64,000 nt of DNA from an uncultured Desulfohalobiaceae bacterium (GCA_964573115.1 CAZNIP010000004.1:1190-65189), one strand, 5' to 3'. Counted from the stretch's first letter, positions 1 through 19,873 are shown. The notes: generated by a model not told the origin, from the letters alone. Numbers and translations: made by a program.

Positions 1-1143
1 CTGGTTGCAGACCACGAAGGCGTATTCAAAGACGCTCTTGAGCTCACGGATGTTTCCAGGCCATTGATATCCATAGAGGATATTCATGGCCTCCCGGCTG
101 ATGCCCTGGACGTTCTTGCCGGTCTTGGCCTTCAAGCGGTGGAAGAACGTCTCCGCCAGGAGGGGAAGGTCGTCCAGCCTTTCCCTCAGAGGCGGGAGGT
201 GGATGGGAATGACGTTGACCCGGTAGTAGAAGTCCTCCCTGAACATTCCGGCCTGGACCAGCTCGTGGAGGTCCTTGTTCGTGGCCGTGATGATCCGCAC
301 ATCCACCGGGATGGGCCGGTGATCCCCGACCCGTTCGACGACCCTCTCCTCCAGGACCCGCAGAAGCTTCACCTGGGTTGACAGGGGGATGTCCCCGATC
401 TCGTCCAGGAAGATGGAACCCCCATGGGCAGCCTCGAATCGACCTTCCCGGCTGGTCATCGCCCCGGTGAACGCCCCCTTGACGTGCCCGAAGAGCTCGC
501 TCTCCAGGAGGGACTCCGGGAGAGCCGCGCAGTTGACCTTGATCAGGGGTTTGTCCTTTCTGTCGCTTGCCGTATGGATGGCCTGGGCCACGAGCTCCTT
601 GCCGGTTCCGCTCTCTCCGGTGATGATCACCGGGGCGTCAGACAGCGCGGCGTTGGGAATGAGGTCGAAAACCCTCTGTATGGCGGCAGAATGACCCAGA
701 ATCCCGAACGAGGCGCCCCCCGTTCCCAGCTCCTGGCGGCAGGCCTCGAGCTGCTGCTCCTTTTCCACCACCTCGGAGAGGTCGGTCAGCGTCTCCACGG
801 CACCGATCATGGCCCCGTCCTTGCCCGCCAGCACCGAGGCGTTCTTGAGCACAGGAATGAATCGCCCGTCCTTGTGCTGGATGGTGCAGTGGCGCATGCG
901 GACCTTCCTGGTGCGAAACAGGGAGCACCAGTAATGCTTCTCCTCCTTCCTGACCTTCCAGCACATGTCGCAGTTGAAGATCAGGCAGGAGCTCCCCAGG
1001 ATCTCCTGCCTGGAGTAGCCGGTCAGCCGTTCCATGCCGGAGTTGACGGAGACGATTTTTCCGTCGGGGCTGACAACCATGACCCCCTCGTGGATCGTGT
1101 CCACCACGGTCTTCCAGTACATGTTCAAGTCTTGTTCAAACAT
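1..1143 (-). CDS. sigma-54-dependent transcriptional activator, PAS sensor + AAA+ domain (C-terminal HTH cut off by the left window edge)
   Basis: Absent from the ORF track because it runs off the edge. Hand translation of the reverse strand from ATG 1143-1141 gives MFEQDLNMYWKTVVDTIHEGVMVVSPDGKIVSVNSGMERLTGYSRQEILG... It then shows Walker A GESGTGKEL, ESELFGHVKGAFTGA (GAFTGA sigma-54 contact motif) and IITATNKDL. It is a paralog of 13838-15319 and 35337-36674. Confidence 0.9.
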   Translation of the reverse strand, partial: MFEQDLNMYWKTVVDTIHEGVMVVSPDGKIVSVNSGMERLTGYSRQEILGSSCLIFNCDMCWKVRKEEKHYWCSLFRTRKVRMRHCTIQHKDGRFIPVLKNASVLAGKDGAMIGAVETLTDLSEVVEKEQQLEACRQELGTGGASFGILGHSAAIQRVFDLIPNAALSDAPVIITGESGTGKELVAQAIHTASDRKDKPLIKVNCAALPESLLESELFGHVKGAFTGAMTSREGRFEAAHGGSIFLDEIGDIPLSTQVKLLRVLEERVVERVGDHRPIPVDVRIITATNKDLHELVQAGMFREDFYYRVNVIPIHLPPLRERLDDLPLLAETFFHRLKAKTGKNVQGISREAMNILYGYQWPGNIRELKSVFEYAFVVCNQ

Positions 1144-1326
1144 AACCCGTCATCTGCCTTGAATTGGACAAGTGTTCAATTCTGAATAGCATCTGAACAG
1201 CTCCTTGCCAACACCTGATCCACGAACCCTCCTGGCATTGGACAGGAAGCCTGAGATTTCAGAGGTTTGTTGTTTCTTTTCCAGATGTCCGCCCCCCCTT
1301 TCGCCCAGAGCGGGATGTTCCTCAGC

Positions 1327-1342
1327 TGGCATTGATATTGCT
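1327..1342 (+). promoter_or_regulatory. sigma-54 (-24/-12) promoter candidate for the tusA/dsrE-like cluster
   Basis: TGGCATtgataTTGCT matches TGGCAC-N5-TTGCW with the correct spacing. It lies in the divergent region next to an enhancer-binding-protein gene. The caveat is that it sits about 270 nt upstream of the first convincing CDS (1615). Confidence 0.6.
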
Positions 1343-1614: not shown

Positions 1615-1863
1615 ATGACCGGATGCGGAGGACATCGTCTCGATTTGAAAGGTCTGGTGAGCCCTTTTGTCCATCTCAAGGTCATACAGCAGGTTCAAGA
1701 GCTCAACCCGGGGGACTCGCTGCATCTCGAGCATATCGACCCCGAGACCATCCACGACCTCATGGCCATTCTGAAGCACTACCCTCTTGAGCTGGGCCCG
1801 GTTACGGAAAGGGAAGGCTCCTGCGGGCTGCAAATCACCAAGAACACATCAACACCCTTGTAA
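1615..1863 (+). CDS. TusA/SirA-fold small protein, non-canonical (Ser replaces the CPxP cysteine)
   Basis: 82 aa. DLKGLVSPFVHLKV aligns with the TusA motif D-x-x-G-L-x-C-P-x-P but has S instead of C. An AGGAG RBS lies 8 nt upstream. The gene is directly followed by a canonical tusA. Confidence 0.6.
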   Translation: MTGCGGHRLDLKGLVSPFVHLKVIQQVQELNPGDSLHLEHIDPETIHDLMAILKHYPLELGPVTEREGSCGLQITKNTSTPL

Positions 1864-1878
1864 CAACGGAGGACAACC

Positions 1879-2124
1879 ATGGACGTTCAAAGCATTCAAG
1901 CCGACCAGGTTCTGGACACCAGCGGATTGAGCTGCCCCATGCCCCTGCTCAAGACCAAGAAAGTGCTCAAGACCATGTCTGCTGGTCAGGTCCTGGAAAT
2001 CATCGGAACAGACCCGGGATCCAAGAATGACATTCCTGAATACTGCAACAAGGGAAATGCTGAGTTCCTCGGCTTCGTGGACGAGGAAGGGGGCCGGACC
2101 CGCTACTTTGTCAAAGTCACCTGA
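1879..2124 (+). CDS. tusA: TusA-family sulfur carrier protein
   Basis: 81 aa with DTSGLSCPMPLLKTKK, the canonical GLxCPxP active-site motif. A GGAGGA RBS is present. Confidence 0.85.
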   Translation: MDVQSIQADQVLDTSGLSCPMPLLKTKKVLKTMSAGQVLEIIGTDPGSKNDIPEYCNKGNAEFLGFVDEEGGRTRYFVKVT

Positions 2125-2142
2125 GCTTTCAGGAGAAGAAAG

Positions 2143-2430
2143 ATGAAATCAATCATCGTGCTCATCAAAGATCCGGAGCAGCAGTACGAGGGCCTGAGAA
2201 CGAGTCTTGGGGCCCTGTTGGAGATGGCCTCGGTGTCCATGGTCGTCCTGAACCACGAAGTGGCCGACATGGATGAGGCCTACAGCGAAAACATGGAGTT
2301 CCTGGATGAAATGGAAGGGGAACGGTTCTCCAACCACCAGGCCAATGTGGACAAGTATGGGTTTCAGCCCATCACCATGGCCGAACTGGGCCGCAAGGTG
2401 AGAGAAGCGGATATCGTCATTCCTTTCTGA
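2143..2430 (+). CDS. DsrE/DsrF (TusC/D)-fold-like small protein, no obvious catalytic Cys
   Basis: 95 aa beginning MKSIIVLIKDPEQQYEGLRTSLGALLE..., the size and N-terminal beta-alpha pattern typical of the DsrEFH family. It sits between tusA and a DsrE-like gene. The assignment rests on pattern recognition only. Confidence 0.5.
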   Translation: MKSIIVLIKDPEQQYEGLRTSLGALLEMASVSMVVLNHEVADMDEAYSENMEFLDEMEGERFSNHQANVDKYGFQPITMAELGRKVREADIVIPF

Positions 2431-2442
2431 TGGAGGAGAACT

Positions 2443-2613
2443 ATGGATGTGCTGCATGTGTGTCGCACCGAACCGGACGAAACCGTGTCGACGCTCATTG
2501 ACGAAGTGTCCGGGCCGGAGGCGGTGACCCTGGACCTCTTCAAGGAGGACGTGGACTGGAATGAGGTCGTGGACGCCATCTTCAAGGCGGACAAAGTGAT
2601 CAGCTGGTGGTGA
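2443..2613 (+). CDS. 56-aa small protein in the sulfur-relay cluster (DsrH/TusB-like position)
   Basis: Below the ORF-track size cutoff and found by hand. A GGAGGAG RBS precedes ATG 2443. The product is MDVLHVCRTEPDETVSTLIDEVSGPEAVTLDLFKEDVDWNEVVDAIFKADKVISWW, with stop TGA at 2611-2613. It is tightly packed between neighbouring genes. Confidence 0.4.
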   Translation: MDVLHVCRTEPDETVSTLIDEVSGPEAVTLDLFKEDVDWNEVVDAIFKADKVISWW

Positions 2614-2668
2614 ACACTGCCAGCCTGGATGGCCTCAGGGAAACCTTTAACCAGGCAGGACAGCGACA

Positions 2669-2977
2669 ATGGCTCAATTACTCGGCATCATGGTCAGTTC
2701 GGACAAGCACCTGGACTATGTGGTCAACCTCACTCGGGCAGCCCATGCTCAGGGACACCAGGTCAAGGTCTTCTTCACCGGCAGATCGGTCCTGCTGACC
2801 CAGGAAGAGGATTTCAAGCAGCTGGTGGGCAAGGCCCTGCTCTATGTCTGCGACGTGAGCTTCCGGGCCAACGGCCTGGAAGGCAAAGAGGTCCCGGGGG
2901 TGGGGTTCAAGGAGTTCGTGACCCAGGCCCGCAATGCGGAGATGCTCGAGGAGTGCAACCGCTACCTGGTGCTTTGA
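2669..2977 (+). CDS. DsrE-like protein with candidate active-site cysteine
   Basis: 102 aa. The opening MAQLLGIMVSSDKHLDYVVNLTRAA... and LLYVCDVSFRANGL resemble the DsrE/TusD Cys loop. Confidence 0.6.
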   Translation: MAQLLGIMVSSDKHLDYVVNLTRAAHAQGHQVKVFFTGRSVLLTQEEDFKQLVGKALLYVCDVSFRANGLEGKEVPGVGFKEFVTQARNAEMLEECNRYLVL

Positions 2978-3027: not shown

Positions 3028-3501
3028 ATGAGGGCCAGGGAGATCATGGACACAACTTTTGAAACCCTGCGCCCGGACAACACTGTTGCCGAGGCGGTGC
3101 AGCGGTTTTCCGCGGTCAGCAGCACCCTGGGCCGGAAGATGTTCGGGCTCATGGTCACGGACGGCGAAGAGCGGCTTGTGGGCATGCTCTCCATGTACGA
3201 CATCCTCCTGTTCATTCAGCCCAAGCATGTCCATATCTGGGGTGAAATGGACGATCTGGAGCCGACTGCGCTCTTTGACGAACTCCTGGGCAAGGTCAAG
3301 AACATTCACGTCGGGGACATCATGACCACCGACGTGGTGACCATTCACCCCGAAACCCACGTTCTGCTCATCGTCGACCTGATGCTCAAAAAGCACATCC
3401 GGCGCCTGCCCGTGGTGGACGGGGACAGCGTGGTGGGCATCGTCTATGTCTCGGATGTCTTCTATCAGCTCATGGGCAGGATCGTTGAACCCCACTCCTG
3501 A
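3028..3501 (+). CDS. CBS-domain pair protein
   Basis: MRAREIMDTTFETLRPDNTVAEAV...VGDIMTTDVVTIHPETHVLLIVDLMLKKHIRRLPVVDGDSVVGIV shows two CBS repeats. A GGGAGG RBS precedes ATG 3028. The longer track ORF from 2629 overlaps the dsrE-like gene and is rejected. Confidence 0.8.
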   Translation: MRAREIMDTTFETLRPDNTVAEAVQRFSAVSSTLGRKMFGLMVTDGEERLVGMLSMYDILLFIQPKHVHIWGEMDDLEPTALFDELLGKVKNIHVGDIMTTDVVTIHPETHVLLIVDLMLKKHIRRLPVVDGDSVVGIVYVSDVFYQLMGRIVEPHS

Positions 3502-3518: not shown

Positions 3519-4409
3519 ATGGTCGTCATCAACAGGAAAAGCGTCCTCAGCGGCATCCTGGTGCAGGAGGTCATGCGCAGGCAGGTCGTCTCCCTGAGTC
3601 TGGAAGCCAGCATCAAGAAAGGCATCAACGCCTTGATCAAGTACAAGGTCAATGCCGTGCTCGTCACCGACCAGGGCGGGCAGCCCCAGGGGGTGGTCAC
3701 GGGAACCGACCTCATGTCCGCATTTTACGCCGGACTGCCCCTGGAGATGGAGCTGGAGAACATCCTCTCCAGCCCTCCCCTGAGCTGTTTCCCGGACGAT
3801 GTCCTGGAAGACGGTCTCGACCTGATGAAAGAGCACCTGGTGCATCAGGTCTACGTTCAGGGAGAGCAGCCCCGGAGGATCGTCGGCTTCCTGGCCTACT
3901 CCGACATCGTGGGCCTTTTGTACCGGACCTGCTGGGCCTGCAGGCGCAACCTCCACAAGTCCAGAGATGGTCAGAAGGACGGCGGCGGGACCAGACCCCT
4001 TCGGGTTGAGGAGGTCATGACCCGGGGGGTGGCCTCGTCCCGGACCGACCAGAGCCTGGACCAGGTCATCGAGACCCTGTCCGAAAACCGTTTCGGCGCG
4101 GTTCTGCTGCAAAATGACCAGGCCATGGCTCAAGGGGTGGTTTCCAAAACCGACCTGGTCCTGGCCTATGCCCACGGGCTCAGCCTGGGCACAAAGGCTG
4201 AGCAGATCATGAGCTCCCCAGTGCTGACCTGCGGCCAGTCCGACCTCTTGACCACGGCCCTGCAGAAAATGCTCCTCTGGGACACACGGCGGATCTTCAT
4301 CGCCCAGGACGACTCCCCTTCCATTGTCGGCGTTCTGTCCCTGTCCGATGCGGCCAGATTCCGCTCCGGCTCCTGTCTGGCCTGCACAGCCGGCAGGCTG
4401 ATGGCCTGA
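3519..4409 (+). CDS. four-CBS-domain protein with Cys-rich inserts
   Basis: 296 aa with repeated (V/I)M..xVV(S/T)... CBS signatures. It also carries CWACRRN and a C-terminal SGSCLACTAG motif. Confidence 0.8.
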   Translation: MVVINRKSVLSGILVQEVMRRQVVSLSLEASIKKGINALIKYKVNAVLVTDQGGQPQGVVTGTDLMSAFYAGLPLEMELENILSSPPLSCFPDDVLEDGLDLMKEHLVHQVYVQGEQPRRIVGFLAYSDIVGLLYRTCWACRRNLHKSRDGQKDGGGTRPLRVEEVMTRGVASSRTDQSLDQVIETLSENRFGAVLLQNDQAMAQGVVSKTDLVLAYAHGLSLGTKAEQIMSSPVLTCGQSDLLTTALQKMLLWDTRRIFIAQDDSPSIVGVLSLSDAARFRSGSCLACTAGRLMA

Positions 4410-4439: not shown

Positions 4440-6254
4440 TCACTTGCCTCTCAGACGCACTGGGCACCCCTCCGCCTTTCCCTGTCTGAGCTTTCGGAGG
4501 CTCAGGGCGAAGTCGTCATACACGGGGTCGATGTACTGATCATGGCAGGCCAGGCAGGGGCCCGGCCTGAGAATGGCCTCGAGCTCGGCCCGGGTCCAGG
4601 GTCGCCGGTCTGGCCTGGAGGCTGTGTGCAGCCGGGTTCCGTTGAGGCTGCCAAAGGCCTCGGGCGGGACATCCAGGCCAAAACCAGACCTCCTTGAATC
4701 GTACAGGGGATCGAAAGAGACCCCTTCCGGGCCAGTGAGCAGGTGCCCCTCCCCCAGGCCCAGGGCCTTGGGGTCCAGATGGCATTCAGCGCAGGTCCTG
4801 GCCGAGGGCTGGGTGGTGTGGGGGTCAAAGGTGGTCATGGCCGGAATGGTCTTCGAGGCCTCGGGCTGATGCCGGCCCTGCCGGTCGAAGACCGAGACGA
4901 AGACCTGGCAGGGGGCAAAAGGAACCACCTCTGCCCCGTCCACCCCGAGAATCGGTTGGGTCAGGCGCATGTAGGAACGGCCCTCGTTCCAGTGCCCCCT
5001 GGTCTCCTGGCCGGACAGCTTGTCCAACTGGACCTCGTCCTTTCTGTATTCCAGGTGACAGCCGTAGCACTGGGGCATGAGCCTGCTGTGGCAGGCCTGG
5101 CAGCTGAGCCGTTCGTGGCCCGGCAGGTTGTGGTGGGGTTGGGACAGGTCAGTGGACTCCATGAAAATCGGCTTCCCGTCCAGCTTGCGGAACAGGACCG
5201 CCCGGCCGTCAATGGAGCGCAGGTGGTACAGGGGGGCGGATCGCGGAGAATAGGCGATCCTGGCCCCCTTGATCCCGGGCACGGCCCGGTTCAGGCCGGC
5301 CAGGGTCACAGCCAGGCCGTCCCCGGGCCGGACAGCCTCGAACTCCGGGGCATGGCACATCTCGCAGCTGATTTCGGTCTGCTCCTCCATATACTCATGG
5401 GTCTGCCCGTCGCCCATGATCTCCAGATGGGTATGGCAGTCGATGCAGGTCAGGCCCAGATCAAAGTGGACATCGGCCGGCCCCTGGATGAAGTAGCGCC
5501 CCCCTGAGAGCCTCCTGGTCCCAGGGGCCCCCCGCACGTAGGGTGTGCCGTACCCTTCCGACTCGAACCTGCCCTGATAGGACAGACCCTGCCTGGCTGA
5601 ACGGTTGTGACAGCGCAGGCAGTTGTCAGCCGGGACCCTGACCGAGAGCCGGGCATGATCGAAGGTCATCAGGGTCGGATCGTCCGCGGTGTCGCCTTTG
5701 CCGACCACATGGCAGGCCGAGCACCCCCCGCCCCGCTGGCCGATCTCCCCTTCACCTTCCCGGGGCTTCCAGAGGTGGCAGGAGGCGCACATCTTGGCGA
5801 ACTGATCCTCGGCCAGACTGAGCCTGGCCGGATCCTCGAGCATCCGGGGCACATCCCGGGGCGCGGCCGCAAGCTGGCCATCGGTTTCCCAGTGATAGGA
5901 GAGGGTGTTCAAAATACCCTTGTTCGTGGCCATGATCGACGACTTGACCCTGGGCACGATCTCAGGGTGGCACTCGGCGCGGCCGCAGGTTTGCCTGGCG
6001 AAGTGAAGGTCCCCGGGGTTGATGACCATCCCGGCGTGGGCCCTCTCCTTGTCCAGAGAGCTGGGATTGCCCAGGTGGCAGACCGCGCATCCCAGGGCCG
6101 AGACCGGGTGGGACGGGTCGGGGTCGCTGACCTCAGGGTGGCAGACCAGGCAACCCTCCTGGTAGGGCTCTTCGGGCCTGGGCCGGAGCATGTCCTGGAC
6201 CATGACCACCGCCCCCAGAAGGACGAAGCTCAGGAGCAGAAGGGACCCCTTCAC
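4440..6254 (-). CDS. periplasmic multihaem c-type cytochrome
   Basis: 604 aa with an N-terminal signal/TM segment. I counted 11 CxxCH motifs (CLVCH, CAVCH, CASCH, CSACH, CLRCH, CIDCH, CEMCH, CQACH, CYGCH, CAECH, CLACH) plus one CxxxxCH (CGRAECH). Confidence 0.9.
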   Translation of the reverse strand: MKGSLLLLSFVLLGAVVMVQDMLRPRPEEPYQEGCLVCHPEVSDPDPSHPVSALGCAVCHLGNPSSLDKERAHAGMVINPGDLHFARQTCGRAECHPEIVPRVKSSIMATNKGILNTLSYHWETDGQLAAAPRDVPRMLEDPARLSLAEDQFAKMCASCHLWKPREGEGEIGQRGGGCSACHVVGKGDTADDPTLMTFDHARLSVRVPADNCLRCHNRSARQGLSYQGRFESEGYGTPYVRGAPGTRRLSGGRYFIQGPADVHFDLGLTCIDCHTHLEIMGDGQTHEYMEEQTEISCEMCHAPEFEAVRPGDGLAVTLAGLNRAVPGIKGARIAYSPRSAPLYHLRSIDGRAVLFRKLDGKPIFMESTDLSQPHHNLPGHERLSCQACHSRLMPQCYGCHLEYRKDEVQLDKLSGQETRGHWNEGRSYMRLTQPILGVDGAEVVPFAPCQVFVSVFDRQGRHQPEASKTIPAMTTFDPHTTQPSARTCAECHLDPKALGLGEGHLLTGPEGVSFDPLYDSRRSGFGLDVPPEAFGSLNGTRLHTASRPDRRPWTRAELEAILRPGPCLACHDQYIDPVYDDFALSLRKLRQGKAEGCPVRLRGK

Positions 6255-6255
6255 G

Positions 6256-7158
6256 TCAAACCCCTCTCTGAAGGAGGACCAGACCGGTGAGCGCAGCGTA
6301 GACGCCCAGGGATCCCAAAAAGGTCAGCCTGGCAGCCTGCTCCGCCCTGCCCGACATCAAGGGCAGGCCAAGAAAGAGGGCTGCGGCGCAGGCCGGGAGC
6401 ACCACCCCGGCCCACAGCGGAGGCAGGTGCTTGAGCATCTCCTGGAGTCCGAGGAAGAACCAGGGCCCGGAGGCCTCATGAATCTCGGCCTCCGGAGGCA
6501 GAGCCAGGGGCATGGGAATCATGATGGCCCCCAGGGCGCAGACCAGGAGCGCCACAGTCATGTAACGGACTCGGGGGAGCCAGGACCGGATATGGTTCTT
6601 CAGCAGCACCAGGAGGAGAAGCGGCAGCAGCCAGCAGTGCCAGAGGTATGGCGGAAAAAAGAAGTCCTGGCCGCTCCCGATGAGGAGGCGGGCCAGAGTT
6701 TCCCCCGCCAGGGGGATGGAGCTGGAGAGATTCTGCAGGATGGTGCCGGCCAGGATCCCCTCCTTGTCCCCTTTGAGCACAAAGCCGGTGAACAGGAGAA
6801 GCAGGGCCAGGGCCGAAGCCAGCCAGAGACGGGCCCATTCAGTCAGGGAAACCACCCGGTGGTTGCGGCGCAGGAAGTGGTCCAGGACATGGAGCAGGGT
6901 CAGGACCACGCAGGCCTCTCCGGACAGGAAATGGAGCCTTCGAAAGAACCACCCGAAGGGGATGCGGGTGGTGATGCTCTCCACCCGGGCAAAGACATCC
7001 CCCCAGGGGTGAAACTGAAAGGCCAGAATGAGCCCGGACCCGAGACAGAAGATGCCTGTGGCCAGGGCCATGCGCGGCAGTACCGGGCTGATCCGCCTGT
7101 GATCCTTGATCAAGGCTGCTGCTTTGCCAAAGACAGAACGGGTATGAAATGTCATCAC
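6256..7158 (-). CDS. cytochrome b subunit (bc1/b6-type four-helix di-haem domain)
   Basis: 300 aa and polytopic. RRLHFLSGEACVVLTLLHVLDHF provides the helix B His pair, and WHCWLLPLLLLVLLKNH provides a second His pair 14 residues apart. It lies adjacent to the Rieske gene. Confidence 0.8.
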   Translation of the reverse strand: MMTFHTRSVFGKAAALIKDHRRISPVLPRMALATGIFCLGSGLILAFQFHPWGDVFARVESITTRIPFGWFFRRLHFLSGEACVVLTLLHVLDHFLRRNHRVVSLTEWARLWLASALALLLLFTGFVLKGDKEGILAGTILQNLSSSIPLAGETLARLLIGSGQDFFFPPYLWHCWLLPLLLLVLLKNHIRSWLPRVRYMTVALLVCALGAIMIPMPLALPPEAEIHEASGPWFFLGLQEMLKHLPPLWAGVVLPACAAALFLGLPLMSGRAEQAARLTFLGSLGVYAALTGLVLLQRGV

Positions 7159-7177
7159 AGGCGTTCAGATTTCGGGT

Positions 7178-7232
7178 GTCAGCCCTGCCTCTGGCCTGGG
7201 CTGACAGGTTCAGGGTTCAAGGTTGAGGAGGG
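7178..7232. repeat. intergenic hairpin (GCCTCTGGC apex) plus GGTTSA-type short repeats, inside the Rieske-cyt b spacer
   Basis: gtcagccctgcctctggcctgggctgac is followed by aggttcagggttcaaggttgaggagggg. The same architecture occurs at 21508-21566, 48268-48323 and 63470-63530. Confidence 0.8.
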
Positions 7233-7303
7233 GAAAGTTCCCGACGTGACCAGCAGGATCTCGACTCGGCCAGGTTGATCAGCCAAGAAACTTGACTCCA
7301 GAA

Positions 7304-7720
7304 TCAAGTTTCATACGAGCCCCTGACGGGCAGAATGACCTCCAGGTCACCACTGTCAAGCCTTTGCGATTCAAGGACGGCCAGATCGGACCTGGCCGGG
7401 CCCCTGAGGCGCTTGCCCTGCAGGTCGTAGGCGCTCCCGTGGCAGGGGCAGACAAACTCTTTTTCAGCCTCATTGAAGTGGACCCAGCATCCCAGGTGGG
7501 TGCACCTGGCGGACAGGGCCTGCAGGGATTCCCCCTTGGGAATCAGGATGGCCCCGTCCCGACTGGCGAAGGGAGACAGCTCCGGGGCGGGGAACACGAC
7601 CCGGCGGACGGTGCGCTCCTGCCAGGTGACAAAGCGCAGGATGGGCCAGCCCCAGAAAGCCAGCCCGGCAGCCCAGACGGTCGAGCCCAGGAGCCATTGC
7701 AGGAAGCGCTGCCTGGTCAT
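7304..7720 (-). CDS. Rieske [2Fe-2S] protein
   Basis: Carries CTHLGC...CPCHGS cluster-binding boxes. The N-terminus MTRQRFLQWLLGSTVWAAGLAF is Tat-like and hydrophobic. ATG 7720 overlaps the upstream stop (ATGA at 7717-7720). The longer track ORF reaching 8089 is rejected. Confidence 0.9.
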   Translation of the reverse strand: MTRQRFLQWLLGSTVWAAGLAFWGWPILRFVTWQERTVRRVVFPAPELSPFASRDGAILIPKGESLQALSARCTHLGCWVHFNEAEKEFVCPCHGSAYDLQGKRLRGPARSDLAVLESQRLDSGDLEVILPVRGSYET

Positions 7721-9597
7721 GAGTCGTCTTCCCTCTGCTGCAAGCGGTTCGAACGGGCTCGCGGGACCTGTTCGGCGGCCAGGCCTTTCGAACCCGGGGT
7801 CTGCTTCAGGCCGGGGCCCAGGGACTCCAGGAGGCCTTGCTTCTGTTTGAAAAACCTTTGTCCGTATCCGGAGCCGGGTTCCAGGAGCCGATCCCGTTCC
7901 CGGGGGTTCAAAAGCCGCATCCCGGGCACGGCCGGGGGGCTGGGGCGCAGCAGATCGAAATCCGGCCCGGCCTCGAGCTCCCCGTCCCAGGCCAGGCCAA
8001 GCCCCGCTGCAACGGGGTTCCGATGGCAGGTTTCGCAGGGCCGGCCCTGACTGCCGGTGGTGTGGGGAACAGAAGGCATGAAGGCCCATCCAGGGGCTTG
8101 CCCGTCGCCCCGAACGGGGATCTCGCTGTCCAGGAGCACCCTGCCTGCTCGATCCACATAGGAGACCTGATACTGGTGCAGAGGCCTCATCAGGCTGATG
8201 CGATTCTGATGGTCAACTCCCAGGACCCTGTTTTCCCACCTCCTGAACCGGTAGCCTTTGAGCCACAGCCCTGTCGTTGTTTCTCCAGTGAGGAGGTCCC
8301 GGGAGGTCGGTGAACCTTCCGGATCTGCCAGGAGCCTGTTCAGTTCGGTCAACAGCCCGGGGTCGCCCTGTCTGGTCAGGTACGTCCAGACGCGAAAATC
8401 CCCGCCGTCCTGTCGCTGCAGGCTCAACCCGTAGTCATGGCCGATCCACCTGGCATGGCAGCTGCTGCAGCGCAGCCGTGAATGGACTGCGGGGTCGTGA
8501 GAGGGGCTCGTGGCACGGAAAATCGGCAGCAGCCTGTTCCTGCCCTGGCGGTCCTGGAAAGACCATGTTCCGTTCCGGTTCTGGAGACCCTCCACCTCGG
8601 GGTTCGGTCCGGCGTCGGAGAACCCGCCGTGGCAGTCCTGGCAGGTTGTACCCGGACTGTCCAGGGCAAAGGCGGCTCGGTGCCCATCCCCCATGACATC
8701 CTGCTTGTGGTGGCAGTCCAGGCAGCTCATGCCCCTTTCCTGATGGACGTCCCTGGCCAGGACATGAAAGGCCCCCTGCGGCATGTCGCGGACCGGGACC
8801 TCCCCCAAAACGGCTTCCTGGAAAAAGGAGTCGTAGTCCCGCTCAAACAGGCCGTGGCCATCCGAGCCAATGGAGTTGGGGCGATGGCACTTCAGGCATT
8901 GGGCGTCAGGAATGTCGGCTGTCAGGCCATGAACCCTGGGGTGGCCCGCGCTGGAGCGGTCGATGGACTGGTCGTTCCCGCGATAGCGGCCGTCAGCCGC
9001 ATACGGCACGTGGCAGGCGGCGCAACCCCTGGCCCTGTAGGGCGGGTTCCCTGCAGCACCCACCGCACTGACGTGGCACTGCAGACACTTGCGCCGCAGG
9101 AGGTCGTCCACCAGGTCCTCGGGTTCTGCCGGGTCTGGAGGACTGTGCGGAAGGGGCTCGAGGGCCCCTCCGGCCCCGTAAACAGCGGGGACAGCCGAGG
9201 CCTGGGCCCCGAAAAGGAACCTGGTCTGGTTGATCATTCCAGCCAGGGTGAGGTGCAGGCTGGTCTGAAACGTCTCCACGTCGTCCTGGTGGCACTGGCC
9301 GCAGACCTGTTCGGCCGAGGCCATCCGCGAAGGGTTTTCAAGGATCGGCGAATGATCGTCCAGCGGCCGGCCGCGATCCTGGCGAAGGAGATGGCAGACC
9401 GGGCAGCCGAAAGTGTGTCCGGAGCCTGGGGATTCGACACCTCGATGGCAGGACAGGCAATCCTGAAAGTCGTGCTCCGGGCTCTTCAGACAGCCTGTCC
9501 CGGCGGCGAGAAGGGTCAGGAGCAGAAGCCCTGCCCGAATGACACCTGATTGGAGAACGGTCTCACACCTCCACGACGAATCGTTCCGTTTCCTCAT
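7717..9597 (-). CDS. multihaem c-type cytochrome, probable lipoprotein
   Basis: 626 aa with an LLAAGTGC lipobox-like signal. It has 10 CxxCH motifs (CLSCH, CPVCH, CGQCH, CLQCH, CAACH, CLKCH, CLDCH, CQDCH, CSSCH, CETCH). It shares blocks with 4440-6254, for example DCH(H/T)..(D/E)(V/I)MGDG. Confidence 0.9.
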   Translation of the reverse strand: MRKRNDSSWRCETVLQSGVIRAGLLLLTLLAAGTGCLKSPEHDFQDCLSCHRGVESPGSGHTFGCPVCHLLRQDRGRPLDDHSPILENPSRMASAEQVCGQCHQDDVETFQTSLHLTLAGMINQTRFLFGAQASAVPAVYGAGGALEPLPHSPPDPAEPEDLVDDLLRRKCLQCHVSAVGAAGNPPYRARGCAACHVPYAADGRYRGNDQSIDRSSAGHPRVHGLTADIPDAQCLKCHRPNSIGSDGHGLFERDYDSFFQEAVLGEVPVRDMPQGAFHVLARDVHQERGMSCLDCHHKQDVMGDGHRAAFALDSPGTTCQDCHGGFSDAGPNPEVEGLQNRNGTWSFQDRQGRNRLLPIFRATSPSHDPAVHSRLRCSSCHARWIGHDYGLSLQRQDGGDFRVWTYLTRQGDPGLLTELNRLLADPEGSPTSRDLLTGETTTGLWLKGYRFRRWENRVLGVDHQNRISLMRPLHQYQVSYVDRAGRVLLDSEIPVRGDGQAPGWAFMPSVPHTTGSQGRPCETCHRNPVAAGLGLAWDGELEAGPDFDLLRPSPPAVPGMRLLNPRERDRLLEPGSGYGQRFFKQKQGLLESLGPGLKQTPGSKGLAAEQVPRARSNRLQQREDDS

Positions 9598-10759
9598 TCC
9601 AGGTCACCAGCACGTACCAGATCGCCATGAGCAGGGACACGGCCACGATGGTCCCCTGATAGCCGAGAATGTCAGGGAGGAAAACTTCGAAGCCCACAAT
9701 CCGCTGCATCAGCTCGGAAGCATCGATCCAGGCACGGACCAGGGAGTTGGACAGAGCAAAGAAGACCAGGGCGAGCATGAGCTTGACCTGACCCTCAACG
9801 GCCCGCCAGGCCGTCCCGCTGCCGCAGCCGCCGGTGACGAGCATCCCGAAACCGAAGATGAAGCCGCCGATGAGGGCCCCGAACCCGAAGTTGGCCGTCA
9901 CGTACGTGGTTTCCATTCTCAGGCCGACCCACTTCAGGGTGGCGAACCCGAGCATGCTGATCAGAATGCTGACGATGACCGTCCTGGTGACCTCTCCGTC
10001 GCCAGTCATGAACGGCTCCCTGAAGCAGCGGGCAAAGCAGAGCCTGGACCGGTGCAGGACAAAGCCGAAGCCCAGGCCGCAAAGCAGCAGGCCGCCAACG
10101 AAGATGTACCCGTAAAACGTGTACACCTCGGAGGCGATGAAGGCCAGGACGATGAGCGCCGCCCCAATCCAGGGCTGGATTCTCTTCCAGTTGAAGCGTG
10201 ACTGCTTGAGCCTCGGGATGTCGGTTTTCCCGCTCCCAAGAGTGATGTTTTCCATTTCCCAGTACAGGTATTTCAACCCTGCCCAGGCACCGAGCATGAG
10301 CCCGGCCATCATCACGAAGCCGCTCAGGGACAGGGCGCTGATGGCGGTGTAGAACCCACCGACATTGCACCCCCCCGCCAGGGCGGCCCCTGTTCCGAGG
10401 AGCAGTCCCCCCACCACCGCCTTGATGCCCTCCAGAAGGGGCGGGACGCGAATGGCGAACTGACCTGCCAGGAGAGCGGCCGCCAGGGCTCCGACCATCA
10501 GGCCGAGCGTCAGAATGGAGTTCGTGGAGACCAGGGCTGAATAGGGCTGCTCTGCATACATTCCCAGGCTGTAAAAGAACCAGTCCGCCCAGTTGCGCAG
10601 TCCGCCGACAACCCCCCAGGGCCTGTCCCAGGCAAAAGTGATCACGGAGAGGATCCCCACCAGGACCCCGCCGGTCATCATGGGCCACGGCTGGACAAAG
10701 ACCTTGTCCCAGGCCTGCTTGACCACCTTGATGAAGACGCTTGTGTTCTGGCTCATCAT
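9563..10759 (-). CDS. YeeE/YedE-family membrane protein (thiosulfate/sulfur-compound transporter-like)
   Basis: 398 aa and polytopic. Two family-typical Cys loops are present, LAGGCNVGGF and VTGGCGSGTAW. Confidence 0.85.
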   Translation of the reverse strand: MMSQNTSVFIKVVKQAWDKVFVQPWPMMTGGVLVGILSVITFAWDRPWGVVGGLRNWADWFFYSLGMYAEQPYSALVSTNSILTLGLMVGALAAALLAGQFAIRVPPLLEGIKAVVGGLLLGTGAALAGGCNVGGFYTAISALSLSGFVMMAGLMLGAWAGLKYLYWEMENITLGSGKTDIPRLKQSRFNWKRIQPWIGAALIVLAFIASEVYTFYGYIFVGGLLLCGLGFGFVLHRSRLCFARCFREPFMTGDGEVTRTVIVSILISMLGFATLKWVGLRMETTYVTANFGFGALIGGFIFGFGMLVTGGCGSGTAWRAVEGQVKLMLALVFFALSNSLVRAWIDASELMQRIVGFEVFLPDILGYQGTIVAVSLLMAIWYVLVTWNEETERFVVEV

Positions 10760-10771
10760 GCACTCCTTTCC

Positions 10772-12448
10772 TCAGCAGCCCTCGTCTTCTTTTGAAAACA
10801 GCCCGGTCGCCTGTCCTCCGGGTTCAGTGACCGGGACGTCAGGTGCGCCAATGCAGCTTGGGTCGTCTTCAGCGCGATCAGCCAGGGCGAAGACCACGGC
10901 CATGTCGTAGGAGCGCCAGGCCAGCTTCGAGGTCGGGTCGGCCAGAATGGCTTTCCAGAAGAGCTTCTTGGCTTCCTGGTACCTTCGGCGTTCAAAGGCT
11001 GTCTGACCGTGACGGATCATCCTGGCGCAGAGCTCCGAATCCGGGGTGGAGACCTCGATGTCGGTTTCGGCCAGGGTTTCCAGGTCAGCTGTGTCCCCGG
11101 CAAGCTCCACAGTGGTTCCCAGGTAGACCTGCTTGCCCACGATATCGATGTTGTCGTTGTAAAAGCGGGCATCATGCCCGGCCTTCTTGAGCATGTTGTA
11201 GGCCATTTCAGCCCGCATGCCGGTGGCACAGTGGGCGACGATCTCCTTGTTTTCGGGAAGCTCGTTTTGGCGCATCTGAAGCTCGTCCAGAGGAATGTTC
11301 ACGGATGGCGGCAGGGAACCGGCAGCCACTTCATTCGGGGACCGAACATCGAGGATCAGGATGTCTTCGGGGTTCTCCTCAATGATTCTGGCGAACTCAC
11401 CTGTGGAGATCTCTCCCGGCAGAGGCTGGGGTGCGTACGCGATCTTCGACACTGGTGCGCCCTGCTTGACCTCCCTTCCGGAGTCAGCCCAGCCCTGATA
11501 GCCGTCTTCGAGGATCGAGACGTTTTTGTAGCCCCAGGAGCGGATGGTGGTGACAGCAGGCTTGAGCCGATTCAGGTCAGTGGCTGTGGAATAGAGGATG
11601 ATCGGGGCTTCCCGGTCCAGGGGGAACCCGCTTTTCCGGTCAGCAATGTCCTCCAGAGGGATGGACACCGCATCAGGGATGTAGCCCTGACCTGCCTGCC
11701 TGGTATCGATGAGCACGTAGTTGCCTCTCCTCTTCGTCAGGTAGGTCCCGGTGGTCAGGAGGACATTCCCCTTCTTTTTCCACCCCGGGGCGCCGTCGTG
11801 GTAGACTTTCACCCTGGTGTAGCCCCACTGCTCGGCCATCTGGGAGGCCATCGGGCTCAGTGTGCAGTGGTTCCCGCCGCAGTAGAAAACGAGGAGCACA
11901 TCTTTGCTGTCCGGGAGTTCGGAGCGCATGGTGTGCATGGAGCTGAAGGGGATGGACACGGAGGTGGGGATGTGGGCTTCATGAAAGCGAAGCCCGGGTC
12001 TGGAGTCCACGAGCAGGTAAGGCTCCCCAGATTCGCCGGCCACGAGGCGTTCGACGTCTTCTGTGGTGGCCAGCTGCTCTCTGGGAATTTCAATGGGAGG
12101 CATGGTCCAGATTTCATCTGCCAGCAGATCCTCGGTTTGCTGCCGGAGCCTGATTTTGATGGGCACCTTCGGGGCCAGCTCAGCAGCCAGGTTCAGCGTC
12201 GTGGCCTGGTCATACTTGACCATGTGGGTTTCTGGACCCACCTTGACCTGGATGGTTCTGGCCTTTTGGGACCGTTTGACGAAGCTTCCGGCAATAACCC
12301 CCTGTTCCTGCTTGTACTCTCCATGACAGCGCAGACACTGCTTGGACACCATGCTCTGCACCGGACGTTCAGCCCCAGTCGCCGCAAGGCTTGTGACGAT
12401 GAGCAGGCTGGCAACGAGCGGGACACCGATTTTGAATGGCTGATGCAT
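10772..12448 (-). CDS. exported monohaem cytochrome c fused to three rhodanese domains and a C-terminal TPR-like segment
   Basis: Has a signal peptide (MHQPFKIGVPLVASLLIVTSLAATGA) and one CLRCH motif. Rhodanese loops are YCGGNHCTLSP (Cys), YSTATD (no Cys) and AHCATGMRAEM (Cys). I chose ATG 12448, preceded by GGAGG, over the track start at 12481. Confidence 0.85.
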   Translation of the reverse strand: MHQPFKIGVPLVASLLIVTSLAATGAERPVQSMVSKQCLRCHGEYKQEQGVIAGSFVKRSQKARTIQVKVGPETHMVKYDQATTLNLAAELAPKVPIKIRLRQQTEDLLADEIWTMPPIEIPREQLATTEDVERLVAGESGEPYLLVDSRPGLRFHEAHIPTSVSIPFSSMHTMRSELPDSKDVLLVFYCGGNHCTLSPMASQMAEQWGYTRVKVYHDGAPGWKKKGNVLLTTGTYLTKRRGNYVLIDTRQAGQGYIPDAVSIPLEDIADRKSGFPLDREAPIILYSTATDLNRLKPAVTTIRSWGYKNVSILEDGYQGWADSGREVKQGAPVSKIAYAPQPLPGEISTGEFARIIEENPEDILILDVRSPNEVAAGSLPPSVNIPLDELQMRQNELPENKEIVAHCATGMRAEMAYNMLKKAGHDARFYNDNIDIVGKQVYLGTTVELAGDTADLETLAETDIEVSTPDSELCARMIRHGQTAFERRRYQEAKKLFWKAILADPTSKLAWRSYDMAVVFALADRAEDDPSCIGAPDVPVTEPGGQATGLFSKEDEGC

Positions 12449-12496
12449 GTCTTTGACCTCCGGCCTTGGTGTGCTCAACACGTCATTCAGGAATGA

Positions 12497-12512
12497 AGCA
12501 AATACAGGGCCA
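12497..12512 (-). promoter_or_regulatory. sigma-54 (-24/-12) promoter candidate for the cytochrome/rhodanese/YeeE/Rieske operon
   Basis: The reverse strand reads TGGCCCtgtatTTGCT, with GG and GC at canonical spacing, about 50 nt upstream of ATG 12448. An AT-rich tract (12520-12560) lies just upstream. Confidence 0.65.
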
Positions 12513-12819
12513 CATCAAAATGAATAGAACATTCTGAATTTATTTTATATTATGGCATGTCCATCAGAGTCTCTGTTCACGAAGTGTTTCGATGACTGAC
12601 ATTTTGAACTCATGTTCACATTCTTGTTCATGCAGCCTGGAACAGGGGCTGAAAACGCTTCTCGTTCCGCCCTGCTCCGATGATCTGGCCTTTTTTTTGC
12701 TTCAGACCATCAGGAGTCATGGCCCTTGACCATCGCGAGACGCCGGAGGCAGGCATGACCTCCCTGAACGTGACGTCTGAACCAGTTGTATCATGAAAAC
12801 GCCTTGAGGAGAACAAGCC

Positions 12820-13221
12820 ATGCTTGAAATGGAGATGTCGTTTCCCGGAGGAATGCGGGTCGATGCCGAGTTTAAGGGCTTCAGGGTCAGCACGGATCAA
12901 CCCCTGGACGAAGGCGGCCACGGCTCGGCACCCGAGCCGTACGACCTTTTCGTGGCCTCCCTGGCCACCTGTGCCGGGGTCTATGTTGTGTCGTTCTGTC
13001 AGGAGAGGAACATTCCCACACAGGACCTGAAAATGCGGCTGACCGCGGAAAAGAACGACCAGACCAAGCTGTTTGAGAAGATCACCCTGTTCATCACTCT
13101 GCCGGCCGAGTTCCCGGACAGATACGTCCGGGCGGTCCAGAAGGCGGCCGGGCTGTGCACGGTCAAAAGGAGCTTGACCGAGCCTCCGGAATTTGAAACC
13201 GTGATCACAAATGGAGTGTGA
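12820..13221 (+). CDS. OsmC-family peroxiredoxin-like protein
   Basis: 133 aa. GHGSAPEPYDLFVASLATCAGVYVVSF...AAGLCTVKRSL shows the two conserved OsmC/Ohr cysteines. A GAGGAG RBS is present. Confidence 0.85.
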   Translation: MLEMEMSFPGGMRVDAEFKGFRVSTDQPLDEGGHGSAPEPYDLFVASLATCAGVYVVSFCQERNIPTQDLKMRLTAEKNDQTKLFEKITLFITLPAEFPDRYVRAVQKAAGLCTVKRSLTEPPEFETVITNGV

Positions 13222-13837: not shown

Positions 13838-15319
13838 TCATCCTGACCCGGGCTCTGGCTTGAGAGGAATGCCCCACGTCTTCATGCGCTTCCAGACTGC
13901 TGTCCGGCTGATGCCCAGCTGCCTGGCCACCTCTGCCTTGTTCCATTCGTGCTCCTCAAGCAGCTCCAGGAGCCCCTCCTTCTCGATCTTGACCCCTGTC
14001 CGGCGGCCTGTGGACGGGTGCGAACCCCCTTTTTTTCCAGGTCTGCCGCCCGGCCTGCCTCTTTCCCTGACCTCTCCAGGCAGGTCGTTGACCCGGATCG
14101 TGTCCCGGGAGGCCAGGACAAAGGCATGTTCCACAGCGTTCTCCAGCTCCCGGACGTTGCCGGGCCAGTCATAGTCCATGATCAGCCGCATGGCCTGGGG
14201 CTCCATCCCCTTGATGCGCTGACCGGTCTGTTGGTTCTGCTTGGCGATGAAATGGCTGACCAGCAGGGGCAGGTCGTCCCGGCGCTGACGCAGGGGAGGC
14301 AGCTGGATGGGAAAGACCTTGAGCCGATAGTACAGGTCCTGGCGGAAGATCCCCTGGGCCACCAGGGATGCCAGGTCGCGGTGGGTGGCCACGATGACCC
14401 GGATATCGATCTTCCGGGGCCTGGACTCCCCGACCCGCTCCACTTCACGTTCCTGCAGAATACGCAGGAGCTTGACCTGAACGGGCTGACTGAGCTCCCC
14501 GATTTCGTCCAGAAAAATGGAGCCGCCGTGGGCTTCTTCGAAACGGCCCCGCCTGTCCCTGACCGCTCCGGTGAAGGCCCCCTTGACGTGCCCGAAGAGC
14601 TCGCTCTCCAGGAGGGACTCGGTCAAAGCAGAGCAGTTCACGGTCACGAAAGGCTGGTCTGCCTGGTCGCTGTTGTAGTGAATGGCGCTGGCAATGAGCT
14701 CCTTGCCGGTTCCGCTTTCCCCCTGAATGAGGACCGTTGCCCTGCTTGCCGCCGCGGCCCTGACCCTGGAGAAGACCTCCTGCATGGCCTCGCTCTTGCC
14801 CAGGATGTTGGCAAAGCTGTAGTGTTCGGCCAGGAGCCGGCTGGCCTCTTCAGCCTTGTGCCGCGCTCTGTGCAGCTCGGTCATATCGGTCACGGTCTCC
14901 ACAATGCCGATGACCTGGCCATCATCGTCCTTGACCACTCTGGCCTGTTTGATGACCGGGACATCCCGGCCCTCCCGGTGGCGAAGGACGCATTCCCTGG
15001 CTTCAGGGCGCTCACGCTCAAGGATGCCGCACTTGCGGACATCGGCAGGGCAGACCCTGCCGAAGCAGCGGCTGAATCCAAGAATTTCGCAGGATCTGCC
15101 CAGGGCTTCCGAGGAGGCGAAGCCGGTGATCCGTTCCATGGACCTGTTCCAGGAGGTGATTCGGCCCTGGGTGTCCAGGGTGAAGACCCCTTCGGCCATG
15201 GAATCCATGATCTGGTTCAGAAAGCGGACGTTCCAGACCGCATGCGTTGTGTCGGACATGGCCACTCCTTGATCTGCCGGGCATGCTAGGACATCGCCCA
15301 CCGACGAGCGAGTCAGCAC
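13838..15319 (-). CDS. sigma-54-dependent transcriptional activator (PAS + AAA+ + Fis-type HTH)
   Basis: 493 aa with GESGTGKEL, ESELFGHVKGAFTGA and a C-terminal HTH (EVARQLGISRTAVWKRMK). The PAS domain has a Cys-rich stretch CEILGFSRCFGRVCPADVRKC. The start could instead be MSDTTH at 15259. Confidence 0.9.
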   Translation of the reverse strand: MLTRSSVGDVLACPADQGVAMSDTTHAVWNVRFLNQIMDSMAEGVFTLDTQGRITSWNRSMERITGFASSEALGRSCEILGFSRCFGRVCPADVRKCGILERERPEARECVLRHREGRDVPVIKQARVVKDDDGQVIGIVETVTDMTELHRARHKAEEASRLLAEHYSFANILGKSEAMQEVFSRVRAAAASRATVLIQGESGTGKELIASAIHYNSDQADQPFVTVNCSALTESLLESELFGHVKGAFTGAVRDRRGRFEEAHGGSIFLDEIGELSQPVQVKLLRILQEREVERVGESRPRKIDIRVIVATHRDLASLVAQGIFRQDLYYRLKVFPIQLPPLRQRRDDLPLLVSHFIAKQNQQTGQRIKGMEPQAMRLIMDYDWPGNVRELENAVEHAFVLASRDTIRVNDLPGEVRERGRPGGRPGKKGGSHPSTGRRTGVKIEKEGLLELLEEHEWNKAEVARQLGISRTAVWKRMKTWGIPLKPEPGSG

Positions 15320-18938: not shown

Positions 18939-19039
18939 ATGCCGTCCGGCCTCTCTGTCGTCGGCCTGACTCCGTCAACGTGCGGGGTCGAGTCGATGCG
19001 GGGCGAATGATGAATGAGACAACACAGAGGAGTTTGATC

Positions 19040-19837: not shown

Positions 19838-19873
19838 AATCTTTGGGACCGGAAGACCGGCCCCAAAGATTTT
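19836..19873 (+). terminator. hairpin between the LolA-like and barrel genes (attenuator/terminator candidate)
   Basis: AAAATCTTTGGG-accggaagaccgg-CCCCAAAGATTTT. Confidence 0.4.

Follow-up and report, generated by a model that had tools for sequence, protein, structure and literature searches.

Two gene systems concerned with sulfur have so far been treated separately: the YTD/DsrEFH type II relay, described in 2026 papers on cable bacteria and sulfate reducers, and the Cbc6/Ext system of Geobacter, with its MccSep enzyme (2026). In the former, DsrEFH type II is a sulfur transferase towards DsrC (PMC13293266). In the latter, the Geobacter sulfurreducens cluster extHIJKLMNOPQS (Cbc6, cbcMNOPQR, GSU2930-2940) encodes a rhodanese, a Rieske protein, a cytochrome b, and 12- and 10-haem cytochromes (PMC5877670, PMC2825233). 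ExtMNOPQS corresponds to Cbc6 (GSU2930-2935), a 'bc complex' with the 12- and 10-haem cytochromes (PMC2825233; bioRxiv 10.1101/2021.04.15.440034). Its genes directly adjoin those for the rhodanese ExtH, the porin ExtI and ExtKL (PMC5877670), the last of these being MccSep, a polysulfide reductase essential for elemental sulfur (S0) respiration (PMC13510729). This study focused on a stretch of 64,000 nucleotides (64 kb, hereafter the window) from an uncultured Desulfohalobiaceae bacterium (GCA_964573115.1 CAZNIP010000004.1:1190-65189). At positions 4440 to 12512, on the minus strand, genes for a Cbc6-like complex that interacts with quinol, a periplasmic sulfurtransferase and the importer of a YTD cluster are joined in one conserved operon, which is tightly coupled and has a sigma-54-type promoter.

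The minus strand from 12481 to 4440 is filled by six open reading frames (ORFs), which specify in order a haem-rhodanese, a YeeE-type transporter, a 10-haem cytochrome, a Rieske protein, a cytochrome b and a 12-haem cytochrome. The gene order and haem counts agree with a preliminary description of this DNA, as does the ATGA overlap by which the 10-haem cytochrome gene (stop codon TGA) is coupled to the Rieske gene (start codon ATG). At four of the five junctions the coding regions overlap or lie no more than 12 nt apart: the rhodanese stop is separated from YeeE by 12 nt, the end of YeeE overlaps the 10-haem cytochrome start by 35 nt, and a single nucleotide lies between the cytochrome b stop and the start of the 12-haem cytochrome. 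The sole loose junction is a gap of 145 nt between the Rieske and cytochrome b genes (7159..7303, minus strand), and this gap is absent in the closest relative, a Desulfovermiculus locus (L002). A search within the operon for sigma-70-like promoters found none, and terminator-like sites in it were not above chance, lying at the shuffle mean. A 9-bp hairpin in the gap was considered as an attenuator and rejected, as the 161-nt region did not fold more stably than shuffled sequence (z = -0.01) and the closest relative has no gap. The 3' end of the operon is 30 nt from a convergent CBS-domain gene. With this layout, the six genes would probably be carried on a single transcript.

The core of the operon is the Rieske/cytochrome b pair with its cytochromes. 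The Rieske 2Fe-2S protein (7304..7720, minus strand, 138 aa) is of the bc/b6f type, with an N-terminal membrane helix, the motif CTHLGC...CPCHGS and a Pfam Rieske score of 40.5 bits. Cytochrome b (6256..7158, minus strand, 300 aa) has invariant haem ligands, His76/His90 and His174/His189, at b6-type spacing, and a likewise invariant Cys38 whose position resembles that of the haem ci ligand. Its fused, subunit-IV-like C-terminal part contains the PEWY-like GPWFFLGLQE; the canonical PEWY does not occur there, and GPWFF is without the Glu. The operon has no gene for a cytochrome c1 or f, the two multihaem cytochromes standing in that place. The 12-haem c-type cytochrome (4440..6254, minus strand, 604 aa) carries 11 CXXCH motifs and one CX4CH (CGRAECH) behind an N-terminal hydrophobic anchor or signal; its sequence gave no match to solved structures. 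The 10-haem c-type cytochrome (7717..9597, minus strand, 626 aa, 10 CXXCH) is its paralogue (27% identity, E = 2e-38). That the latter is a lipoprotein, as had been proposed, is probable: its relatives have a canonical lipobox (ISGC, VSAC), although the window protein has the non-canonical GTGC. Counted across stop codons, these two genes are the only multi-CXXCH regions in the entire window.

Against the NCBIfam profiles, residues 27-580 of the 12-haem protein align with positions 14-585 of the 599 in ExtM at 282 bits, and the 10-haem protein, likewise ExtM-like, reaches 187 bits (cut-off 800 for both). The ExtN profile gave 44-49 bits (cut-off 200), the 10-haem protein matching it only locally, and the best NCBIfam score of cytochrome b was to ExtP, at 70 bits (cut-off 290). 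On motif and profile evidence, the 12-haem cytochrome, cytochrome b and Rieske protein are shown to form a Cbc6-like module.

The Geobacter Cbc6/Ext cluster and the window thus both hold, in one cluster, a Rieske protein, a b6-type cytochrome b, a 12-haem and a 10-haem cytochrome and a secreted rhodanese, together with a link to sulfur or chalcogen respiration. The preliminary description knew of no precedent for a Rieske/cytochrome b-multihaem complex tied to sulfur transfer, a view that must be given up, since the Geobacter ext cluster has both a rhodanese (PMC5877670, PMC2825233) and MccSep (PMC13510729). The window operon is nevertheless not an orthologue of the Geobacter cluster, the ExtM, ExtN and ExtP scores being far below the NCBIfam equivalog cut-offs (800, 200 and 290); this comparison was made through the profiles, and none of the best 80 loci recovered with the 12-haem protein (see below) came from Geobacter. 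The window 10-haem protein is a 626-aa ExtM paralogue whereas Geobacter ExtN has 415 aa, and its cytochrome b is fused to the subunit-IV-like part while Geobacter ExtP and ExtQ are separate. The ExtI porin, ExtJ, ExtN, ExtS and the five-haem selenoprotein MccSep of Geobacter have no counterpart in the window operon, and no porin was found in its flanks. Conversely, the window is set apart from the Geobacter cluster by its YeeE importer and by a rhodanese that has a haem motif, an OB fold and a tail with a terminal Cys. Control also differs, being of the sigma-54 type in the window, whereas ExtH and ExtKL of Geobacter are reported to be Fur-regulated.

The names of the NCBIfam profiles raise another reading, in which the operon serves selenium or tellurium handling, whether by selenite or tellurite reduction or by selenium import. 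ExtM (282 bits) and ExtP (70 bits) are both 'selenite/tellurite reduction operon' profiles, and the transporter scored 155 bits to 'selenium metabolism membrane protein YedE/FdhT'. The redox potential of selenite/Se0 would suit a Rieske/cytochrome b complex, and ext mutants of Geobacter are impaired in selenite and tellurite reduction (PMC5877670). These scores are, however, far below their cut-offs (800, 290 and 350 bits, respectively), no match to a selenium-metabolism family was found among the window ORFs scanned, and the physiological role of the Geobacter cluster is now S0 respiration (PMC13510729). A selenium role is very unlikely because the YeeE gene is linked throughout to the sulfur relay proteins TusA and DsrEFH type II.

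This linkage is visible in the window itself. The YeeE/YedE-family protein (9563..10759, minus strand, 398 aa, Pfam Sulf_transp 177 bits) is an inner-membrane sulfur transporter with GGCNVGG and GGCGSG motifs in which the Cys is invariant; across five orthologues Cys131, Cys241 and Cys312 do not vary. Starting 1.5 kb beyond the 3' end of the cytochrome operon, on the opposite strand and convergent with it, is an operon for cytoplasmic partners (1615..2977, plus strand). It begins with a degenerate TusA-like gene (1615-1863) and continues with a tusA that has the CPMP motif (1879-2124, TusA 82.9 bits), two small genes that match small genes of related loci (2143-2430 and 2443-2613) and a small DsrE-like gene (2669-2977, Pfam DsrE 23.3 bits). 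The three small genes at 2143-2977 correspond to dsrEFH type II, which with tusA makes up the 'TD' part of a YTD cluster. A YedE/YeeE gene is missing from 1615-2977 because it is located in the cytochrome operon, and the YeeE of that operon can be identified as YedE, with which a YTD cluster, here split, begins. Its five gene types are those of described YTD clusters, with the Cys motifs of YeeE, the CPxP of TusA, one DsrE-like and two small genes. The window differs in that the cluster is split and tusA-dsrEFH forms a separate convergent operon, whereas the five genes are contiguous in loci L003, L005, L031 and L089. In text searches of the YTD literature (PMC13293266, PMC13047784, PMC9751629), no mention was found of a linkage to a Rieske/cytochrome b-multihaem complex or to a haem-rhodanese. 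Between the two operons of the window stand two CBS-domain genes (3028-3501 and 3519-4409, plus strand); in L002 the tusA-dsrEFH and cytochrome operons are only a few bases apart, with no space for such genes.

Conservation across relatives extends well beyond the nearest genus. The best homologues of the haem-rhodanese, at 70-80% identity, are found in Desulfovermiculus and related metagenome-assembled genomes, and their loci retain the order rhodanese, YeeE, cytochrome, Rieske, cytochrome b, cytochrome. Two loci with about 50% rhodanese identity have the same order with tusA-dsrEFH inserted after YeeE, and the whole YTD cluster is inside the operon in L003, L005 and L031. A genome scan with the 12-haem protein, using one genome per species, returned at least 594 loci, the best 80 of which were fetched. 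Mapping by tblastn placed the sulfur-linked block in metagenome-assembled genomes of Desulfohalobiaceae (L006, L007, L008, L034), Desulfovibrionaceae (L019, L041) and Desulfobacteraceae (L026, L031), as well as in L003, L005, L020 and L032; the Desulfovermiculus loci with the block are L002/L007 and L034. The preliminary description had suggested a survey of synteny, and the block proved to be conserved, the combination recurring in at least four Desulfobacterota families with differing internal gene orders. By a manual count from the tblastn map, YTD genes lie within 10 kb at 9 of the 12 species-representative loci that have a Rieske or cytochrome b gene next to an ExtM-like cytochrome.

These data bear on the possibility that chance alone has placed the rhodanese-YeeE pair beside the cytochrome genes, the two being separate units without functional unity. 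Such an arrangement would account for the 145-nt gap before cytochrome b, for ExtM-like cytochromes being common without sulfur genes, and for L089, where a locus with the tail-bearing rhodanese and YTD genes shows no cytochrome genes before the contig end. It is extremely unlikely, given that the combination recurs across families in varying order, that the other four junctions are so tight, that neither an internal sigma-70 promoter nor terminator-like sites above chance were detected, and that the gap itself is lacking in L002.

Several other observations concern these related loci. The ExtM-like cytochromes were rejected as a marker of the system, as most of the best 80 loci have the pair or a single gene in unrelated contexts. 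In the single cable-bacteria locus that was annotated (L060) the ExtM-like gene adjoins an isoprenoid synthase gene and an IS110 transposase. The Rieske gene of L005 (15330-15725) includes masked or ambiguous bases (X in the translation), and the apparent loss of its cluster-binding motifs is therefore an assembly artefact and not biology. About 6 kb upstream of the Desulfovermiculus operon in L002 (2823-4466, minus strand), an ORF for a 111-aa rhodanese is immediately followed by one for a 422-aa, eight-haem cytochrome resembling hydrazine dehydrogenase (HDH-like), the first 28 residues of which match the C-terminus of a 'rhodanese-related (seleno)protein' profile. The two ORFs seem to be one gene for a rhodanese-octahaem selenoprotein, interrupted by a UGA codon.

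The operon is preceded by a -24/-12 element of the sigma-54 type (TGGCCCTGTATTTGCT, 12497..12512, minus strand) with GG-N10-GC spacing, which ends 48 nt upstream of the ATG at 12448. A loose sigma-54 pattern matched four sites in the window against 1.55 expected, which alone is not significant, and three of these four matches fall in this locus. The element, already named in the preliminary description, is corroborated by near-identical sequences (TGGTCTCGATCTTGCT and TGGTCCTGATCTTGCT) at equal distance from the orthologous gene in two Desulfovermiculus loci (L002, L034), and weaker GG-N10-GC matches occur in the more distant L003 and L005. A second predicted sigma-54 promoter (TGGCATTGATATTGCT, 1327..1342, plus strand) lies upstream of the tusA-dsrEFH operon and is kept with at most one base change in L002, L034 and L006. 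Upstream of it, the palindrome TGTTCA-N15-TGAACA (1173..1199, plus strand) occurs once in the window against 0.03 expected, is also kept in L002, L034 and L006, and is the probable binding site of the adjacent activator.

That activator, a PAS/AAA+ protein truncated by the window start (1..1143, minus strand), diverges from the tusA-dsrEFH genes and shares 81% identity with its counterpart at the corresponding site in Desulfovermiculus. A second, paralogous PAS/AAA+/HTH activator is found upstream of the cytochrome operon (13838..15319, minus strand) and shares 41-44% identity (tblastn) with activators adjoining related loci. The preliminary description had named both as sigma-54 activators; the first is conserved, but the second does not stand beside the operon in the closest relatives and was rejected as the conserved regulator, the orthologous activator being that at 1-1143. 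Three TGAACA repeats at 12574..12630 (minus strand), about 60-120 nt upstream of the -24 element, form a possible activator-binding region, within which ATGTGAACA (12613-12621) also occurs upstream of the L002 operon. This assignment is only suggestive because the bare hexamer is common in the window. TGTTCA/TGAACA hexamers were accordingly rejected as an operator common to both promoters, there being 88 sites in the window, with only the 1173-1199 palindrome both significant and conserved. The repeats upstream of the cytochrome operon differ in layout, and co-regulation of the two operons by one activator is therefore only suggested.

Three further observations were made on sigma-54-related features. 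The PAS domains of the activators at 1-1143 and 13838-15319, and of that at 8173-9576 in L003, share a conserved four-Cys motif (e.g., SSCLIFNCDMCWKV...YWCSLF) with 42-81% identity across loci, which could bind an Fe-S cluster or metal, or sense persulfide. A third sigma-54-like element (TGGCCTTTTTTTTGCT, 12686-12701, plus strand) is situated 119 nt upstream of a divergent OsmC-like gene (12820-13221, plus strand), from a family of peroxiredoxin or thiol-redox proteins, and this gene may belong to the same regulon. The fourth loose match (TGGCACTCTCTTTGCT, 22234-22249, plus strand) is about 640 nt upstream of a gene for a fusion of an SBF-family transporter with a universal stress protein domain (22878-24434).

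The first gene of the operon encodes the protein by which the two systems are joined. The whole ORF of the haem-rhodanese spans 10772-12481, but the likely start is the ATG at 12448, which is preceded by GGAGG and gives a protein of 558 aa (10772..12448, minus strand), the same length as called on an identical public contig. A signal peptide is followed by a single CXXCH (Cys38/Cys41), an OB-fold barrel, three rhodanese domains (three Pfam rhodanese stretches), a three-helix bundle and a disordered tail that terminates in ...KEDEGC (Cys558). Domain 1 has the loop YCGGNHC (Cys190/Cys195) and domain 3 the loop HCATGMR (Cys407), both of which follow the central beta strand and hold Cys where catalytic rhodaneses have their active-site Cys; domain 2 is without Cys. 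Cys190, Cys195 and Cys407 are invariant or nearly so (12-44 homologues). In sequence, domain 3 is nearest to the persulfide-handling rhodanese domains of NPSR and CoA-persulfide reductase. We infer from the CXXCH after the signal peptide that the protein carries a covalent haem. In an AlphaFold2 model (mean predicted local distance difference test score, pLDDT, of 81) the three rhodanese domains were confident, and residues 539-559 had a pLDDT below 50 and would therefore fit a flexible arm tipped by Cys558. A cytochrome or SoxYZ-like fold had been expected for the N-terminal domain, an idea discarded because the model showed an OB fold instead; a Foldseek search with the barrel gave CusF-like matches, a generic OB fold preceded by the CXXCH, and no functional lead. 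By analogy only, the arm recalls the swinging arms of SoxY and DsrC, in which a flexible arm with a Cys at or close to its C-terminus is placed so that it can carry sulfur from one partner to another. There is no relation in sequence or fold: the arm of the window protein comes after three rhodanese domains and a three-helix bundle, and its terminal ...EGC contrasts with the GGCGG of SoxY and the CxxxxxxxxxxC of DsrC.

A census of the family distinguished three forms: proteins of about 560 aa with CXXCH and a C-terminal extension whose last residues, ...EGC, are invariant (17 clusters), proteins of about 460 aa with CXXCH and no tail, and proteins of about 440 aa without CXXCH. The tail-bearing form adjoins YeeE at all eight loci whose neighbourhood was examined, and tusA and dsrEFH type II are also nearby wherever the contig extends far enough. 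Among the tail-less copies, one comes fourth in a PsrABC-like molybdenum operon that has YeeE in its vicinity (L086), a second is downstream of a sigma-54 two-component pair and a third stands alone. At a Desulfurellaceae locus, cytochrome b and an ExtM-like gene are back to back with PsrAB-like genes and rhodaneses. In L031 (2250-3566) and L041 (3584-4449), crude longest-ORF picking gave the haem-rhodanese in two or three fragments. The picking, which dropped true genes elsewhere, may have produced these as an artefact; a frameshift, a misassembly or gene decay could equally account for them. The fragments in L031 still terminate in ...EEGC.

The pairing with Psr-like genes recalls the Psr/Phs operons that include a periplasmic sulfurtransferase, such as Sud of Wolinella and the triple rhodanese of Desulfurivibrio dismutans. 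As in the window, a secreted multi-rhodanese protein is combined with a membrane module that oxidises quinol. In D. dismutans, the triple-rhodanese gene is part of the Psr operon, an operon induced during disproportionation (PMC12142623). The window operon differs in having no molybdenum enzyme: the Rieske/cytochrome b pair and two multihaem cytochromes take the place of the molybdopterin enzyme with its NrfD-type anchor.

Taken together, the gene content suggests, tentatively and with somewhat less than even confidence, that the operon is the periplasmic and membrane half of a sulfur pathway, with quinol electrons flowing outward to rhodanese-bound sulfane sulfur in disproportionation or sulfur respiration. 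Polysulfide, S0 or thiosulfate would be the source of sulfane sulfur, which the secreted haem-rhodanese would bind in persulfide form at Cys190/195 or Cys407 and hand to YeeE by way of the disordered arm with Cys558. From there it would pass via TusA, DsrEFH type II and DsrC to oxidation by DsrAB, loading the menaquinone pool with electrons. Menaquinol would be reoxidised by the Rieske/cytochrome b complex, and the 10- and 12-haem cytochromes would relay its electrons to the periplasm, where the most likely acceptor would be a second rhodanese-bound sulfane sulfur, reached via the rhodanese's own haem and released as sulfide. The net process would be sulfur disproportionation, or sulfur respiration if another donor feeds the quinone pool, with the cytochrome complex occupying the place held by the molybdenum enzyme PsrABC in other organisms. 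An outward flow of quinol electrons to sulfane sulfur is favoured because the rhodanese has a haem motif, its relatives partner Psr enzymes and the Geobacter cluster partners MccSep. The more specific proposal, that with YeeE, TusA and DsrEFH type II this is a self-contained, molybdenum-free disproportionation module in which one sulfur goes to reversed Dsr and a second is reduced on the same rhodanese, is distinctly doubtful. The sulfur function suggested in the preliminary description is likely, in view of the identification of YeeE as YedE of a YTD cluster and the paralogue in a PsrABC-like operon; the direction of electron flow, the substrate and the terminal acceptor we infer from the same gene content.

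Several points weigh against this scheme. A Q-cycle in a Rieske/cytochrome b complex normally needs an acceptor well above the potential of menaquinone, and the polysulfide/sulfide couple is below it. Quinol-driven reduction of sulfane sulfur is therefore thermodynamically awkward, and electron export becomes the strongest rival. For the CXXCH of the rhodanese, which precedes an OB fold and is not in a cytochrome c fold, no conserved distal haem ligand was identified; the motif is retained in about 60 of 112 homologue clusters, many homologues being without it. At most of the best 80 loci the cytochrome pair is found without Rieske or cytochrome b in unrelated contexts, and so the cytochromes themselves are not sulfur-specific but a widely used module, linked to sulfur genes in a subset of cases. 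The cable-bacteria genomes among these 80 loci (Candidatus Electrothrix and Electronema; L056, L059-L064, L066, L084) contain a single ExtM-like 12-haem cytochrome each (about 41% identity to the window protein), and no Rieske, cytochrome b or YTD gene was detected in the flanks examined. Finally, the 145-nt gap could be the site of an internal promoter.

Under electron export, the rhodanese and YeeE would feed reversed Dsr for sulfur oxidation, and the Rieske/cytochrome b complex and cytochromes would be the exit to an acceptor outside the operon, whether Fe(III)/Mn(IV) minerals, a partner cell, an electrode or a periplasmic reductase. Schemes of this kind have been proposed for Desulfurivibrio alkaliphilus (MISO) and cable bacteria. 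In concept they match the window, pairing the sulfur proteins (YeeE, rhodanese, TusA and reversed Dsr) with a b-type quinol oxidase and multihaem cytochromes of the periplasm. Published models tie the sulfur proteins to bc-type and multihaem cytochromes (PMC12545173) and to PetAB (PMC13047784), and for sulfate reducers DsrEFH type II is a proposed marker of sulfur oxidation (PMC13293266). The ExtM-like homologues in cable-bacteria genomes point the same way, and an acceptor of higher potential would be thermodynamically better for the complex. In D. alkaliphilus and cable bacteria, however, the genes are scattered and linked by transcriptomics, and the quinol oxidase is a CbcL homologue or a stand-alone PetAB, whereas all parts are in one operon in the window and no outer-membrane conduit is nearby. 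At the loci examined, neither a porin-cytochrome conduit through the outer membrane nor another terminal reductase was present in or next to the operon, and export leaves unexplained both the rhodanese haem and the association of the rhodanese family with Psr-type reductases. It is considered possible but rather doubtful.

The same components might also operate in reverse, a direction that the preliminary description had left open. The haem-rhodanese and cytochromes would then oxidise periplasmic sulfane sulfur, thiosulfate or sulfide, and electrons would be driven uphill through Rieske/cytochrome b to menaquinone at the expense of the proton-motive force. Complexes of the bc type do run backwards in some chemolithotrophs, and His/Cys-ligated haems catalyse thiosulfate oxidation in TsdA and SoxAX (noted in PMC13510729). 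On the other hand, the surroundings of the rhodanese CXXCH revealed neither a Cys nor any other conserved haem ligand, the mode would cost energy, no precedent is known among Desulfobacterota, and sulfide:quinone oxidoreductase already does the job more simply; this mode is improbable.

Elsewhere in the window, two groups of genes were noted. A cluster at 16071-21506 (plus strand) specifies a 955-aa transporter of the MMPL/RND-like kind together with LolA-like and DUF1302-like proteins (the latter a weak Pfam match of 19.6 bits, below cut-off), and is probably for export of a lipid or hydrophobe, unrelated to the operon. At 40567-43448 (plus strand), a gene for an FAD/NAD oxidoreductase is followed by one for a ferredoxin-MvhD (FlpD) fusion; they resemble HdrA or QmoB, which fits the electron-transfer machinery of a sulfate reducer.

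In the literature searched, including the YTD papers, no mention was found of a fusion of the two systems, of a Cys-tipped haem-rhodanese, or of a bc-type complex in place of Psr. Three features of the locus accordingly appear to be new: the physical fusion of YTD and Cbc6-like genes, the replacement of a molybdenum Psr by a Cbc6-like complex, and a rhodanese with a disordered tail ending in an invariant ...EGC. How relatives of sulfate reducers oxidise or disproportionate S0, polysulfide and thiosulfate is an open question, in particular the first periplasmic step and the route between quinone and periplasmic sulfur. By physically joining the YTD importer to a Cbc6-like complex through a Cys-tipped haem-rhodanese, the operon and its relatives offer a testable candidate for this missing link, and a tail-bearing haem-rhodanese adjoining YeeE is suggested as its genomic marker. 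If the cytochrome complex does replace PsrABC, these organisms would have a molybdenum-independent route of sulfur respiration. If, further, the operon acts as a disproportionation module, it would represent a new type of quinol:sulfane-sulfur oxidoreductase and supply the long-sought first step of S0 disproportionation.

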